From IMG/VR virus record IMGVR_UViG_2690316115_000004: a stretch of 4,509 nucleotides of DNA; one strand, 5' to 3'. A program made the translations under genes and the position numbers. A model generated the notes under the pieces. The model was not told the DNA's origin. It did not search any database and worked only from the letters and a program-made list of their open reading frames with translations. This stretch comes from a virus (lineage: Duplodnaviria > Heunggongvirae > Uroviricota > Caudoviricetes). Shown piece after piece: positions 586 to 4,509 of this stretch. Position 1 is the first letter of the stretch, and each line of letters starts with the position of its first letter.

Positions 586-1641
586 GTGCGGGTATTACTT
601 CGACCTGTTCCGGTACCGGAACTTGGGTTGGTGGTCCTTAAACCAGGCCGTGAATCCATGCAGGTATTCCATAACCCTCGAGTGCTTGTGGAGCCGGAAC
701 CGAAAAGCATGCGCGGTCTGCCGTCCGGCATCGTCCCTGCCGTTCGCCAGCCGCTGGCGGAGGATAAATCATTACTGCCGTTTTTCAGCAATGAGCGTGT
801 GATTCGTGCTGTTGGTGGCGCTGGTGCACTGTCTGACTGGCTGTTGCGTCATGTCAAATCCTGCCAGTGGCCTCATGGTGACTATCATCACAGTGAAACC
901 GTTATTCACCGTTATGGTACCGGCGCAATGGTGTTGTGCTGGCACTGCGACAACCAGCTGCGTGACCAGACATCCGAATCACTCGAGCAACTTGCTCATC
1001 AAAACCTGTCAGCATGGATGATTGACGTCATCGGTCACGCAATAAGCGGTACGCAGGAGCGTGAATTATCTCTGGCTGAATTATCCTGGTGGGCGGTCCG
1101 CAATCAGGTGGCGGACGCGCTACCGGAAGCGGTATTACGTCGTTCGCTGGGGTTGCGTGCGGAAAAAATCCGCTCAATGTACCGTGAAAGCGACATCGTA
1201 CCGGGAGAGCAGACCGCCACCATCATACTGAAGCAGCGCACAAAAAATCTTGCGCCGCTGCCTCACGCCCACCAGCAAAACCCGCCACAGGAAAAGACGG
1301 TGGTCAGCATTGCCGTTGATCCGGAGTCACCGGCTCAGTATCTCCAGCGCCAGAAACCACAACGGGAAGAGATGCCTGTATACACGCGCTGGGTAAAAAC
1401 GCAGAAATGCATGACGTGCGGTAATCAGGCAGATGATCCGCATCACATCATTGGTCATGGACTGGGAGGGATGGGAACAAAGGCTGATGATTTGTTTGTT
1501 ATTCCGCTGTGCCGTAAATGTCATAACGAACTGCACGCTGGGGTAAAAGATTTTGAAGAAAAACACGGCAGCCAGCTGTTGTTGCTGATTCGTTTTTTAA
1601 TGCACGCGAGAAATTCGGGTGTCCTGAAGTGGAAAGCATGA
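586..1641 (+). CDS. DUF968-like prophage protein (YdfU-like) with two Cys/His HNH-like clusters
   Basis: 351-aa ORF. C-terminal CMTCGNQADDPHHIIGHGLGG...CRKCHNELH is an HNH-type CxxC...H...CxxCH motif; an earlier C..HGDYHH...CWHCDNQL cluster resembles a second copy. GTG start at 586 with GGAGG at 577-581; ATG 658 is an alternative start. Position directly upstream of rusA matches lambdoid prophages. Confidence 0.7.
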   Translation: MRVLLRPVPVPELGLVVLKPGRESMQVFHNPRVLVEPEPKSMRGLPSGIVPAVRQPLAEDKSLLPFFSNERVIRAVGGAGALSDWLLRHVKSCQWPHGDYHHSETVIHRYGTGAMVLCWHCDNQLRDQTSESLEQLAHQNLSAWMIDVIGHAISGTQERELSLAELSWWAVRNQVADALPEAVLRRSLGLRAEKIRSMYRESDIVPGEQTATIILKQRTKNLAPLPHAHQQNPPQEKTVVSIAVDPESPAQYLQRQKPQREEMPVYTRWVKTQKCMTCGNQADDPHHIIGHGLGGMGTKADDLFVIPLCRKCHNELHAGVKDFEEKHGSQLLLLIRFLMHARNSGVLKWKA

Positions 1642-2007
1642 ATGACTGAACGGATAGAATTTGTTTTGCCTTACCCGCCGACGGTGAATACCTACTGGCG
1701 ACGTCATGGCAATACGTATTTCATCTCGGAAGCCGGAAAGCGTTATCGCCGTGATGTGGCGCTAATTGTTCGCCAGCAGCGGCTGAAATTAAACCTGTCC
1801 GGAAGGCTGGTGATAAAGATTATTGCAGAGCCACCGGATAAGCGCCGTCGTGACCTGGACAATATCCTGAAAGCACCACTGGATGTGCTGACGCATGCCG
1901 GACTTCTCATAGACGACGAGCAGTTTGATGAAATCAATATTGTGCGCGGTCAGCTCGTTCCTGGTGGGCGGCTGGGGATAAAAATCACAGAACTGGAGTG
2001 CGCATGA
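1642..2007 (+). CDS. rusA: Crossover-junction endodeoxyribonuclease RusA (Holliday junction resolvase)
   Basis: 121-aa ORF MTERIEFVLPYPPTVNTYWRRHG...DKRRRDLDNILKAPLDVL...DDEQF...GGRLGIKITE. The size and the RRRDLDN acidic motif match RusA as I remember it. ATG 1642 immediately follows the upstream TGA (1639-1641). Confidence 0.85.
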   Translation: MTERIEFVLPYPPTVNTYWRRHGNTYFISEAGKRYRRDVALIVRQQRLKLNLSGRLVIKIIAEPPDKRRRDLDNILKAPLDVLTHAGLLIDDEQFDEINIVRGQLVPGGRLGIKITELECA

Positions 2008-2693
2008 ATAACCACTATTTACAGTTTGTGCGTGAGCAGCTCATTATCGCCACCGCTGATTTGAGTGGGGCAACAAAAGGTCAGCTTGAAGCCTGGCAGG
2101 AGAATGCCATGTTCGATACAGGGCGTTACAGGCGAAAAAAAATCCGGTACCGCGATGAAGTGACTGGAAAAATGATAACGCGGGATAATCCACCAATCCC
2201 GGGAAAGCAATCGCTGGCGAAGGTGACGTCAATTCCTCTGGTCAGTCCGGTTGAGTTTTCGACATCATCGTGGCGGCGGGCTGTTCTGTCTCTTGAAGAA
2301 CATCATAAAGCCTGGTTGTTGTGGTGTTACAGCGGGAGTATTTGTTGGGAATATCAGATCGCGATAACACAGTGGGCGTGGAATGAATTTAATACTCAAT
2401 CCGGTACCAGAAAAATTGCTGGGAAAACGCAGGAACGCCTGAAAAAATTAATCTGGCTGGCGGCGCAGGCAGTAAAAGCAGAACTTTTTGGTGGGGAAGG
2501 TTATGAATATCAGGAGCTGGCATTACTGGCGGGAGTGACAACTAAAAACTGGTCCAAAACATTTACTCGTCACTGGGTTGCAATGAAACACATTTTTCAC
2601 CGACTGGATAGTGAGGCTTTATTATTTGTAATGAGAACACGTTCAAAACAAAAGGCGGCATTTTCAAAGCAAAGTGTTGCAAAAGTAGATTGA
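2004..2693 (+). CDS. Putative late-gene antiterminator (Q-like), assigned mainly by position
   Basis: ORF ending TGA 2691-2693. ATG 2004 overlaps the rusA stop (ATGA) with GGAG at 1995-1998; the track starts it at GTG 1998. It sits between rusA and the promoter/tRNA/terminator module, where lambdoid phages encode Q. I cannot confirm Q-family membership from sequence alone. Confidence 0.5.
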   Translation: MNNHYLQFVREQLIIATADLSGATKGQLEAWQENAMFDTGRYRRKKIRYRDEVTGKMITRDNPPIPGKQSLAKVTSIPLVSPVEFSTSSWRRAVLSLEEHHKAWLLWCYSGSICWEYQIAITQWAWNEFNTQSGTRKIAGKTQERLKKLIWLAAQAVKAELFGGEGYEYQELALLAGVTTKNWSKTFTRHWVAMKHIFHRLDSEALLFVMRTRSKQKAAFSKQSVAKVD

Positions 2694-2756
2694 AAGGCAT
2701 ATGTTTCATGCAAATCTGATATTTTGCCGATTTTGTACGTGATGGCAAAAGCAAAC

Positions 2757-2784
2757 AAAACCCGCCCACAAGCGGGTTTTGTTG
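2757..2784 (+). terminator. Intrinsic terminator-like hairpin downstream of the Q-like gene, flanked by A-tract and T-tract (possibly bidirectional)
   Basis: AAAACCCGC (2757-2765), loop CCACAA, GCGGGTTTT (2772-2780), then GTTGTG. A 5-bp GC stem extended by A:U pairs with a U-rich 3' tail. Confidence 0.55.
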
Positions 2785-2787
2785 TGC

Positions 2788-2836
2788 CACTTATCTCGGA
2801 TAGACATGGTGAATGCGCTGGTGGAGGAGATAAGGG
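2788..2836. repeat. Inverted repeat (CACTTATCTC ... GAGATAAGGG) separated by 29 nt, just upstream of the promoter -35
   Basis: 2790-2797 CTTATCTC is the exact reverse complement of 2827-2834 GAGATAAG; the match extends to 9 of 10 over 2788-2797 versus 2827-2836. Function unknown; could be an operator or RNA structure. Confidence 0.4.
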
Positions 2837-2850
2837 TGATTTTTGTATGC

Positions 2851-2879
2851 TTGCAACATTGATTTCGTAACGTTATTAT
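2851..2879 (+). promoter_or_regulatory. Near-consensus sigma70 promoter (TTGCAA, 17-bp spacer, TATTAT) driving the tRNA cluster; candidate late promoter PR'
   Basis: -35 TTGCAA at 2851-2856, 17-bp spacer, -10 TATTAT at 2874-2879, with a T-rich stretch upstream. Predicted start around 2886, 2-3 nt before the first tRNA. Assignment as PR' is inference from position downstream of the Q-like gene. Confidence 0.55.
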
Positions 2880-2888
2880 CCTGCGCCC

Positions 2889-2964
2889 GGCCCTTTAGCT
2901 CAGTGGTGAGAGCGAGCGACTCATAATCGCCAGGTCGCTGGTTCAAATCCAGCAAGGGCCACCA
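2889..2964 (+). tRNA. ileZ: tRNA-Ile2 (anticodon CAU, lysidine type; formally also readable as Met), ileZ-like
   Basis: Manual cloverleaf: acceptor GGCCCTT/AAGGGCC, D-arm GCTC-AGTGGTGA-GAGC, anticodon loop CTCATAA (CAU), T-arm GCTGG-TTCAAAT-CCAGC, discriminator A and encoded CCA. 76 nt, closely resembling E. coli ileX as I recall it. Confidence 0.85.
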
Positions 2965-2965
2965 A

Positions 2966-3041
2966 CCGCCACTAGCCATCAGGAAAGAGCGTCAACCCTT
3001 TAAGTTGAGTGTGCGAGGTTCGAGTCCCCGGTGGTGGTCCA
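2966..3041 (+). tRNA. tRNA-like element in the argN slot, probably degenerate or a pseudo-tRNA (apparent anticodon UUU with C at position 33 and a weak D-stem)
   Basis: Exactly 76 nt between the flanking tRNAs. Acceptor CCGCCAC/GTGGTGG (one G-U), perfect anticodon stem TCAAC/GTTGA with loop CCTTTAA, T-arm CGAGG-TTCGAGT-CCCCG (one mismatch) and terminal TCCA. The D-stem has two mismatches and position 14 is not A. Confidence 0.4.
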
Positions 3042-3054
3042 TTATCGGTATTCT

Positions 3055-3128
3055 GCGTTGTTAGCTCAGCAGGACAGAGCAATTGCCTTCTAAGCAATCG
3101 GTCACTGGTTCGACTCCAGTACAACGCG
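3055..3128 (+). tRNA. argO: tRNA-Arg (anticodon UCU, reads AGA/AGG), argO-like; CCA not encoded
   Basis: Manual cloverleaf: acceptor GCGTTGT/ACAACGC, D-arm GCTC-AGCAGGACA-GAGC, anticodon stem ATTGC/GCAAT with loop CTTCTAA (UCU), T-arm ACTGG-TTCGACT-CCAGT, discriminator G followed by CTA rather than CCA. Confidence 0.85.
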
Positions 3129-3144
3129 CTACACTTATTTTCCC

Positions 3145-3168
3145 GGCTCGCTTTTGCGGGCCTTTTTT
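3145..3168 (+). terminator. Rho-independent terminator after the tRNA cluster (candidate tR')
   Basis: GGCTCGC (3145-3151), loop TTTT, GCGGGCC (3156-3162), a 7-bp stem with one U-G, followed by TTTTTT (3163-3168). Confidence 0.7.
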
Positions 3169-3211
3169 GTATCTGCGCCACGCCCGGCGCATACCAACCA
3201 CAGAGCCTTTC

Positions 3212-3221
3212 GGGGGGGGGG
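3212..3221. repeat. G10 homopolymer tract in the intergenic leader upstream of the TerB-like gene
   Basis: Direct read: C then ten consecutive G at 3212-3221. Long G runs are uncommon in enterobacterial DNA and are slippage-prone. Confidence 0.9.
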
Positions 3222-3303
3222 AGCTTACGGAGTGGTCAGTGTGACTTTCTCTGTGGGCAGATCGCTCCCGGGCGTTGGCTCACCCACCCAAAGGAACGTC
3301 ACG

Positions 3304-3736
3304 ATGTTTGGTATTTTGGGTAAAAAAAGCCCGCAGAGCGGCAACGGAAATTAAAAAGTTTGAAAAACGCGATCTGGCACAGGTGGTGATTAACGCCGCC
3401 TACCTGGTGGCCTGTGCAGATGGTGAATGTGAGGCTTCCTAGAAAGCGAAGATCGAACAGGTACTGCGTAATCAGCCTGCGCTGTACGCGTTTACGTCAG
3501 AAATTAATGCGATTAGCGCAACCATTATCGGTCAGCTGGATACGAACTTTAAAACTGGTCGTCGTGCGGCGTTACGTGAGATCGAGGATGTGAAACACGA
3601 TACGCGTGAAGCGGAAGATGTGCTGGATGTGGCGGTGGCCATTGCGGAGGCAGACGGCGAAATTGAGCCGGAAGAGCGCAAGGTGCTGGAAGAGATTGCC
3701 GGTGTTCTGGGTCTTCGTCTGGAGAATTACCTGTGA
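3304..3736 (+). pseudogene. TerB-like (tellurite-resistance TerB superfamily) gene, apparently disrupted by a +1 frameshift in an A7 run (3322-3328) and an in-frame TAG (3440-3442)
   Basis: AAGGA (3291-3295) sits 8 nt upstream of ATG 3304; this frame gives MFGILGKKSPQSGNGN then TAA at 3352-3354. The next frame from 3329 reads ARRAATEIKKFEKRDLAQVVINAAYLVACADGECEAS-TAG-KAKIEQVLRNQPALYAFTSEINAISATIIGQLDTNFKTGRRAALREIEDVKHDTREAEDVLDVAVAIAEADGEIEPEERKVLEEIAGVLGLRLENYL, ending TGA 3734-3736. The ADGE...E and AEADGEIEPEE segments look like the paired TerB motifs. Deleting one A restores a continuous frame from the ATG. Confidence 0.55.
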
Positions 3737-3900
3737 CGGTAAAACTGCGCCTGACTGTGGCTGCACTCCTGCTGTTTCTGGTGGTGATGGTGGATTTCAC
3801 CAGCAGAATCATGTCGGTGCTGGCGGATGGGGTGCTGGTCTGCGGCATTGTGGTATTGCTGTGGCCGGTGATAAAAAGAAACAGCCTGCATAATGCTTGA
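3733..3900 (+). CDS. Small hydrophobic protein (about 55 aa, two predicted transmembrane helices), function unknown
   Basis: GTG 3733 overlaps the TerB-like TGA (GTGA) with GGAGA at 3721-3725. Translation VTVKLRLTVAALLLFLVVMVDFTSRIMSVLADGVLVCGIVVLLWPVIKRNSLHNA, stop TGA 3898-3900. Internal ATGs at 3787 and 3811 are alternative starts. Below the 60-aa cutoff of the ORF track. Confidence 0.4.
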   Translation: MTVKLRLTVAALLLFLVVMVDFTSRIMSVLADGVLVCGIVVLLWPVIKRNSLHNA

Positions 3901-4101
3901 TTTTTTTGTTTGCTGTTTATTAAAAACACTTCTGCATGGTGAATCCCCCTGTGCGGTGGGGCAATCAGCAAGAAGGAATATGGGGTAATCGCGGATTCAG
4001 GTGCTGATACTGAATTCACCGGGAGGCACCCGGCACCATGCTTTGCCACAAAAGTGTTATTTCTGTTTTTCTCAAACTATCATCGTTATCCCTTTATTTT
4101 C

Positions 4102-4128
4102 GGCTGCGCATGGCGCGGCCTTTTTTTT
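4102..4128 (+). terminator. Rho-independent terminator upstream of the nanS-p-like gene
   Basis: GGCTGCGC (4102-4109), loop ATG, GCGCGGCC (4113-4120), an 8-bp stem with one U-G, followed by eight T (4121-4128). Confidence 0.75.
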
Positions 4129-4214
4129 ACGACCAGCCACTGGCAGATGGTCATCCTGTGATTTGATTCCGCTTCCGGCTTTTTAACTCTGTTCCTCTAC
4201 ACGGGAGAAATTCG

Positions 4215-4509
4215 ATGTCGATTAAACATTACGATGTTATCAGGGCGGCGTCGCCGTCAGACCTTGCGGAAAAGCTGACACACAAACTGAAAGAGGGCTG
4301 GCAGCCATACGGCGGACCGGTTGCCATTACGCCGTACACACTGATGCAGGCGGTGGCTATTGAAGGAGAGCCACAGGTCGGCCCTTCATCTGAGCCGGAT
4401 TGGTACTACGTCATCGTACTGGCCGGGCAGTCCAATGCCATGGCTTACGGTGAAGGGCTTCCGCTGCCGGATTCATACGATGCTCCGGATCCGCGCATTA
4501 AACAGCTGG
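4215..4509 (+). CDS. nanS-p: Prophage sialate O-acetylesterase NanS-p-like protein (DUF1737 N-terminal domain plus start of SASA/SGNH esterase domain); 3' end beyond the window
   Basis: GGGAGA at 4203-4208 then ATG 4215. Translation MSIKHYDVIRAASPSDLAEKLTHKLKEGWQPYGGPVAITPYTLMQAVAIEGEPQVGPSSEPDWYYVIVLAGQSNAMAYGEGLPLPDSYDAPDPRIKQL, open to the window end. The GQSN catalytic-serine motif and the DUF1737-like N-terminus match the YjhS/NanS family gene found downstream of stx in Stx phages. Confidence 0.8.
   Translation, partial: MSIKHYDVIRAASPSDLAEKLTHKLKEGWQPYGGPVAITPYTLMQAVAIEGEPQVGPSSEPDWYYVIVLAGQSNAMAYGEGLPLPDSYDAPDPRIKQL

Follow-up and report, generated by a model that had tools for sequence, protein, structure and literature searches.

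The closest described counterparts of the locus considered here are the late region of the Shiga toxin (Stx) phage 933W and the tciA-tciB gene pair, whose names derive from phage P1. In the annotation of 933W, the antiterminator gene Q, the late promoter pR', the Q-utilization site (qut) and two terminators are followed by the promoter pT, the transfer RNA (tRNA) genes ileZ, argN and argO, another terminator, the toxin genes stxA2 and stxB2 and a YjhS-like gene (equivalent to nanS-p). We analyzed a stretch of 4,509 nucleotides (nt) from the caudoviricete record IMGVR_UViG_2690316115_000004 (the window, to which all coordinates refer), focusing on its late module at positions 1998-4509, which lies entirely on the plus strand. 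This module holds the control elements for the late genes of an ordinary non-Stx lambdoid prophage of pathogenic E. coli, a kind of prophage that is multi-copy in the genomes of Shiga toxin-producing (STEC) and enteropathogenic (EPEC) E. coli. Its parts follow each other in the order Q, a tR'-like hairpin, a tRNA promoter, an ileZ-like tRNA, a decayed argN, an argO-like tRNA, a terminator, tciA, tciB, a small RNA (sRNA) with its terminator, and nanS-p (Table 1). As a whole, the locus is very probably best explained as a non-Stx late region in which tciA-tciB occupies the stx slot, tciA is dead and transcription is late and Q-dependent. Parts were identified using a list of open reading frames (ORFs), ARAGORN for tRNAs, Pfam for proteins, Rfam for RNAs, PHROGs, a promoter and terminator consensus scan and folding energies.

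Alignment with 933W upholds the Stx-phage gene order claimed for this DNA in the original prediction, base for base in the tRNA block and the sRNA, and all parts named there (Q, a promoter, tRNAs, a terminator, a TerB-like frame, a small ORF and nanS-p) are present at or near the places given for them. The promoter pT, ileZ, argO and the terminator behind the tRNAs are the same or nearly the same in both: the ileZ-like tRNA shows no differences from 933W ileZ, the argO-like tRNA differs from 933W argO at three positions, and the stem, loop and T6 tail of the terminator are identical to the hairpin annotated upstream of stx. Homology ends about 30 nt after this terminator and resumes inside the stxB-yjhS spacer, where the two phages again share the STnc100-like sRNA element, the terminator behind it and the beginning of the esterase gene. 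Between these points 933W carries stxA2B2 whereas the window carries tciA-tciB in their place; no stx-like frame is found in the ORF list, and the 933W alignment breaks across the stx region. The stx slot is thereby precisely delimited: it opens directly behind the conserved tRNA terminator and closes at the STnc100-type sRNA. These limits aid the reading of cargo exchange by recombination between toxin and non-toxin prophages. The two phages also differ in Q, which is annotated as H-19B/DLP12-like in 933W but is a 231-residue protein of the phage-82 type here. The window thus combines a phage-82-type Q with a tRNA module as in Stx phages. Within this module argN is degenerate, such that of the ileZ-, argN- and argO-like tRNAs originally proposed the middle one has decayed.

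The cargo had been described as a TerB-like gene next to a small protein with two hydrophobic segments, a view with which Pfam, profile comparison and hydrophobicity agree. The TerB assignment had been staked on a family hidden Markov model match of the repaired cargo protein. This match was obtained, with 39.9 bits against PF05099 (cut-off 24.4; E 5.8e-10; profile positions 7-109 of 118). The intact TciA of JLK-2012 matches phrog_632 end to end (E 3.8e-69), and a profile built from 22 TciA homologs matches the solved TerB of Klebsiella pneumoniae (2JXU) over residues 19-144 (E 2.7e-15). An AlphaFold (AF2) model of an intact homolog (P0004; pLDDT 89.3) is all helical, with eight helices. Its best Foldseek matches, 2h5n (deposited as function unknown) and 2ou3 (tellurite resistance protein, COG3793), have TM-scores of about 0.45-0.55 and probabilities of 0.89-1.0 with weak E-values (0.02-0.6). 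TciA is a true TerB homolog, all-helical and carrying two DGx5E acidic motifs, located at D39-G40...E46 and D117-G118...E124 in the family alignment. It shares with the TerB of ter operons a full-length profile match, the helical fold and two DGx5E-type motifs but is not part of a terZABCDE operon and has a 55-residue membrane-protein partner instead. No ter-operon gene is annotated in the 25-kb neighborhood of a 99.7%-identical locus, and TerC, TerD and TerE are likewise absent as neighbors from the annotated near-identical loci, O157:H7 strain 7409 included.

The partner TciB matches PF13064 with 62.6 bits (cut-off 25; E 3.3e-17) and phrog_1470, described as 'TciB-like', with an E-value of 5.6e-30. 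Two hydrophobic segments are predicted for it. The start codon of tciB, GTG, and the stop codon of tciA overlap within the sequence GTGA, and 8 nt upstream of the GTG there is a GGAG. Rare single-chain proteins containing both PF05099 and PF13064, namely P0007 (197 residues) and P0065 (170 residues), are apparent TciA-TciB fusions across this GTGA; they may be real fusions or frameshift artifacts.

The tciA of the window is a TerB member by descent, yet a pseudogene. Two lesions distinguish it from the intact alleles. The first is a run of seven A at 3322-3328 compared with six in JLK-2012, Evi and PPyecE_EH1910, and the second is a TAG at 3440-3442, replacing the GAG (Glu46) of intact alleles. 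Glu46 is part of the first DGx5E motif and is invariant in the 22 aligned homologs; an intact frame containing both motifs is not found in this copy. A full-length product is possible only for TciB, not for TciA. Expression of a TerB-domain cargo upon prophage induction had been anticipated, but no full-length TerB-like protein is expected from this copy, tciA being a pseudogene. We consider it extremely improbable that the frameshift and the stop are sequencing or assembly errors in a gene that is really intact. One lesion does lie in a homopolymer run, which is a typical site of sequencing errors, but both are also present in an independently sequenced RefSeq complete genome, where the PGAP start at TTG 3308 sidesteps the frameshift and the gene is flagged 'internal stop', a flag given in two independent genomes. 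Further, a 60-mer centered on the TAG occurs exactly in 577 complete-genome records from many laboratories and several STEC serotypes, including O157:H7, whereas exact matches to its GAG form number only 42. With the TAG in 577 records and in independent genomes, the tciA lesions are therefore not sequencing errors. The identical pseudogene resides in the same module of O157:H7 strain 7409, and an O145 strain has an intact 143-residue TciA beside the same tciB and esterase genes. One example of an intact pair is WP_000466924.1 with WP_000216636.1 from O145 RM9872. The amber allele predominates within its sequence background across STEC. Intact TciA of other sequence types is common, with clusters of 143-residue proteins comprising 848, 680 and 354 members, and a cluster of 97-residue 'partial' TciA proteins with 462 members has the length expected of the post-TAG fragment. 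The spread of the amber allele could be due to selection, hitch-hiking or gene conversion among multiple prophage copies.

Because a tRNA cluster whose middle member has an altered anticodon loop lies directly upstream, the amber codon might be read through by a phage-encoded suppressor, so that full-length TciA would be made only when the cluster is expressed. This is hardly credible, since the anticodons of the three tRNAs are CAT, TTT and TCT and none is CTA. The altered tRNA also fails the Rfam tRNA model: no match was obtained for 2966-3041 at E<=0.1, while both neighbors score 68-72 bits. Compared with 933W argN, its anticodon loop reads CCTTTAA instead of CTTCGAA, placing a C at position 33 where 933W has a T, and its D-arm has a 1-nt deletion. 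Finally, in O157:H7 the TAG allele also occurs downstream of an intact argN; the copy of the module in strain 7409 has an intact second tRNA-Arg at the argN position. An internal restart at GTG 3590, which would yield a 48-residue C-terminal piece corresponding to phrog_3920, is unlikely because the only Shine-Dalgarno-like sequence, GAGG, is 2 nt from the GTG.

The original prediction had left open whether this arrangement was already described. The arrangement it described is real, yet the identical cargo is a common, already annotated pair found in hundreds of genomes and several phages, and the arrangement itself is already known. At least 80% of the segment 2694-4214 is present in 633 of 5,426 complete E. 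coli genomes, and tciAB-like DNA was detected in 840 genomes at a median of six places per genome. RefSeq names the two proteins 'tellurite resistance TerB family protein' and 'DUF3927 family protein', and in PHROGs they form the families phrog_632 (TciA) and phrog_1470 (TciB). JLK-2012 and PPyecE_EH1910, labeled with tciA/tciB or 'TciA/TerB-like', have the same families in matching order, adjoining or with an overlap, in the slot between Q and yjhS (nanS-p). In phage Evi a homologous, unnamed pair follows Q and is itself followed by lysis genes. Phage P1 also has tciA-tciB of the same families in the same order, and its TciA is about 53% identical to that of JLK-2012 (query). In contrast to the window, P1 additionally encodes tciC, and its pair belongs to the C1-controlled ban operon and not to a Q-dependent late operon. 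In P1-like plasmids the tci genes are variably present (PMC9603915). From all members of this group (P1, JLK-2012, PPyecE_EH1910 and Evi) the window differs by its amber/frameshift tciA pseudogene. In STEC and EPEC prophages this arrangement is commonplace and annotated, and the TerB-like copy present here is dead.

Phage 434 resembles the window in having a Q82-like gene, a terminator after Q and a slot that contains TciB and is followed by a SASA esterase gene and then holin and endolysin genes. Unlike the window, it has neither a tRNA cluster nor a TerB gene, and a 247-residue membrane protein precedes TciB. Another small membrane protein follows TciB in phage 434 (locus L013, 1171-2403). 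Adjacent TerB and TciB-like genes were found in four unrelated enterobacterial backbones: lambdoid phages, P1, the virulent N4-like phage Pollock and the jumbo Erwinia phage ChrisDB. In four unrelated backbones tciA-tciB adjoins phage tRNA clusters. The tRNAs are Ile-CAT, the decayed argN and Arg-TCT in the window (2889-3129), those for Asn, Thr and Gly in JLK-2012 (L002, 3792-4025), for Trp and Cys in ChrisDB (L009, 286-754) and, in P1, for Asn and Thr upstream and Ile-CAT downstream (L008, 1131-1284 and 2716-2791). In the virulent, N4-like Vibrio phage vB_VpaP-MS02 (L011, 1-1326), a TerC/Alx-family metal-homeostasis membrane protein is encoded immediately upstream of TerB, which suggests a phage-borne functional link between TerB and TerC.

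The position of the cargo indicates how it may be expressed. At the nucleotide level, Q is 77% identical to the Q of phage 82 and 75% identical to the Q82-like gene of phage 434. Its type was assigned by this DNA similarity; the sole match to a solved structure, 1xov (E 5.6e-4), is spurious. The similarity to phage 434 runs about 33 nt beyond the Q stop (to about 2726) and returns at the hairpin 2754-2783, which corresponds to an annotated terminator some 50 nt behind the Q gene of phage 434. By comparison with these phages, pR', the Q-utilization site and tR' would be located at roughly 2660-2790. The consensus scan gave no plus-strand promoter-like site adjoining Q above threshold. Its sole plus-strand promoter-like site is 2851-2879, which aligns with the feature labeled 'pT; putative tRNA promoter' in the 933W record; the two agree fully in the -10 hexamer and in the stretch just before ileZ, and in part in the -35 region. 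The site is the pT homolog and not the late promoter pR'. The same scan gave two plus-strand terminators, at 3145-3162 and 4102-4120. Readthrough from 2851-2879 into the cargo, as had been proposed, is accordingly not what we would predict of a tRNA promoter, whose transcripts should end at the terminator after the tRNAs. Between this terminator and tciA (3163-3303) the scan likewise found no plus-strand promoter-like site. Three hairpin terminators lie between the Q-proximal region and nanS-p, namely 2754-2783, the post-tRNA terminator and the post-sRNA terminator. With no promoter-like site before tciA and three terminators, tciA-tciB is therefore most likely transcribed like stx2, only by readthrough of Q-modified RNA polymerase after induction. 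This view builds on the established behavior of late operons in Stx phages and lambda, for which reviews are available (PMC8065619 and PMC10042803). After induction, Q would load onto RNA polymerase at pR', and the modified polymerase would read through all three terminators and so express the slot genes along with nanS-p and the lysis genes.

For intact alleles, we tentatively propose that TciB anchors TciA at the inner membrane and that, in the course of lytic growth, the complex influences the envelope or the divalent-cation state, a possible though doubtful role. Such a complex might, for example, protect the infected cell from pore-forming colicins or superinfection or tune lysis timing, and would not be a tellurite-resistance determinant for the lysogen. 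Points in favor of a lytic-cycle role are the occurrence of the pair in P1, Pollock and ChrisDB, the TerC-TerB neighborhood of the Vibrio phage, the rare natural TciA-TciB fusion proteins and the lack of a promoter-like site at 3163-3303. Virulent phages gain nothing from lysogenic conversion, yet carry the pair; a membrane-tethered lytic role is therefore tentatively favored. It is improbable that tciA-tciB instead represents a lysogenic-conversion moron, transcribed from its own promoter in the lysogen and providing tellurite or colicin resistance or inhibiting cell division. Three observations would fit such a role: TciA is homologous to the terB product of ter operons, and these have been associated with phage inhibition and with resistance to tellurite and colicins; PHROGs places both families in the class 'moron, auxiliary metabolic gene and host takeover'; and the stx slot is a classic moron position (PMC8065619). 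However, there is no promoter-like site between the post-tRNA terminator and tciA, and the virulent phages that carry the pair form no lysogens. In addition, terB alone is not known to suffice for tellurite resistance, and the amber codon makes pseudogenes of this copy and of most others in the same allele background. The label 'tellurite/colicin/cell division' attached to TciA-TciB appears, in the papers and records examined, to be based on homology only and is probably misleading given the carriage by virulent phages.

A link of the cargo to phage defense had also been suggested, and we regard a prophage-encoded anti-phage defense or superinfection-exclusion system as quite unlikely. In its favor, ter operons have been connected with phage inhibition, defense genes are frequent in the accessory slots of prophages, and both products are predicted to be membrane-located like some exclusion proteins. 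No known anti-phage defense model was matched, however: in PADLOC-DB 2.0 the best model for TciA was PDC-S48 with a non-significant E-value of 0.003 over 35 residues, and TciB had no match. The P1 genes are non-essential with no reported defense phenotype (PMC10695390), the TerB partner is pseudogenized in most STEC copies of this allele, and expression from a Q-dependent late-operon position would begin only once the cell is committed to lysis.

Several points weigh against the proposed late expression and the proposed action of a membrane-tethered TciA-TciB complex in lytic growth. pR' is placed by position, and its hand-read candidates, TTGCAA-17-TATGTT (2677-2705) and TTCAAA-17-TAGATT (2663-2691), each agree with only 8 of 12 consensus positions. 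Ahead of tciA, a promoter that is weak or not of the sigma-70 type might escape so simple a scan. Among publications on TciA and TciB only P1 papers were relevant, and these hold no experiment on function; the P1 'tci' label is explained in these papers by similarity to terB, and all three P1 tci genes are non-essential by CRISPR interference (PMC10695390). The predominance of the amber allele may stem from heavily sampled clonal STEC and prophage recombination and not from selection. In phage 434 TciB is present but TerB is not, and the converse holds for phages of Pseudomonas, Vibrio and Sinorhizobium, whose TerB has no detectable TciB beside it (no hydrophobic downstream ORF); the two are therefore not obligate partners. 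A search for 'DUF3927' likewise returned no functional paper. There is some, albeit small, chance that TciA-TciB is a lytic-cycle module of temperate (lambdoid, P1) and virulent (N4-like, jumbo) enterobacterial phages, repeatedly linked to tRNA clusters, in which an acidic protein of the TerB fold is tethered to the inner membrane by a tiny partner with two hydrophobic segments. If this were true, the amber allele predominant in STEC prophages and the solitary TciB of phage 434 would imply that selection maintains TciB for a role of its own beside nanS-p, and that resident prophages can do without TciA or bear a cost from it.

Table 1. Location of the annotated features in the 4,509-nt window.
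Feature	Position	Strand	Basis and remarks
DUF968/HNH-type gene (ydfU-like), upstream context	586-1641	+	PF06147, E 1.6e-63; DUF968 annotation in 99.7%-identical genome
RusA Holliday-junction resolvase gene	1642-2007	+	PF05866, E 5.6e-15; annotation in 99.7%-identical genome
Antiterminator Q, phage-82 type (231 amino acids)	1998-2693	+	PF06323, E 1e-90; phrog_304
Putative late promoter pR' and Q-utilization region	2660-2730	+	Placed by analogy; 933W pR' and qut abut Q
tR'-like hairpin terminator	2754-2783	+	-21.7 kcal/mol, z -4.7; aligns with annotated phage 434 terminator
tRNA promoter, homolog of 933W pT	2851-2879	+	TTGCAA-17-TATTAT; sigma-70-like
ileZ-like tRNA, anticodon CAT	2889-2964	+	ARAGORN; Rfam tRNA 72.5 bits; PGAP tRNA-Ile
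Decayed argN homolog (pseudo-tRNA)	2966-3041	+	ARAGORN Lys-TTT; unannotated by PGAP
argO-like tRNA-Arg, anticodon TCT	3055-3129	+	ARAGORN; Rfam 68.1 bits
Intrinsic terminator after tRNA cluster	3145-3168	+	7-bp GC-rich stem and T6; -14 kcal/mol, z -3.5
tciA pseudogene	3304-3736	+	PF05099, repaired protein; PGAP start TTG 3308
tciB, DUF3927 small protein, 55 amino acids, intact	3733-3900	+	PF13064; phrog_1470
STnc100/PasD-family prophage sRNA	3905-4077	+	Rfam RF02076
Intrinsic terminator after sRNA	4102-4128	+	8-bp stem and T8; -15.4 kcal/mol, z -2.8; conserved in 933W
nanS-p 5' part, prophage 9-O-acetyl sialate esterase	4215-4509, runs off end	+	DUF1737, E 1.3e-16

The sRNA that closes the slot begins 5 nt after the tciB stop and lies directly upstream of nanS-p. 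It matches RF02076 over the full model (1-206) with 100.8 bits (gathering threshold 47; E 6e-22), and the published quantitative PCR primers for STnc_100 (PMC12370729) match 3936-3955 and 4007-4026 when compared by eye. STnc_100 was reported at a distance of 75 nt behind the stx2 operon and has been found in STEC outer-membrane vesicles (PMC12370729), and pasD was reported directly upstream of a sialate esterase gene (bioRxiv 10.64898/2026.05.13.724894); STnc_100 has been related to PasD in the literature. The element in the window is like these STnc100/PasD sRNAs in its strong Rfam match and its place upstream of a sialate esterase gene but follows tciB instead of stxB. In a 2026 preprint on prophage Pas sRNAs, RusA and TerB (PF05099) are listed among the conserved neighbor genes. 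The esterase gene itself is named SASA family carbohydrate esterase in near-identical genomes (one at 99.7%) and yjhS or 9-O-acetyl-N-acetylneuraminic acid deacetylase in phage records. In the LC5678xx phage records, the argN homolog at 2966-3041 is named tRNA-Lys.

Prophages of the PPompW type lose identity with the window at about 3218, within a run of ten G (3212-3221), where the IS110-family insertion sequence ISEc20 is inserted (L006, 5520-6978). In these records the terminase genes follow directly, and tciAB, nanS-p and the lysis genes are missing. At the other end of the window, near-identical genomes mostly match from position 101 onward (98% coverage, 99.9% identity). Among the top matches, positions 1-100 were matched only in O55:H7 strain DEC5E, which places a recombination or mosaic junction near position 100.

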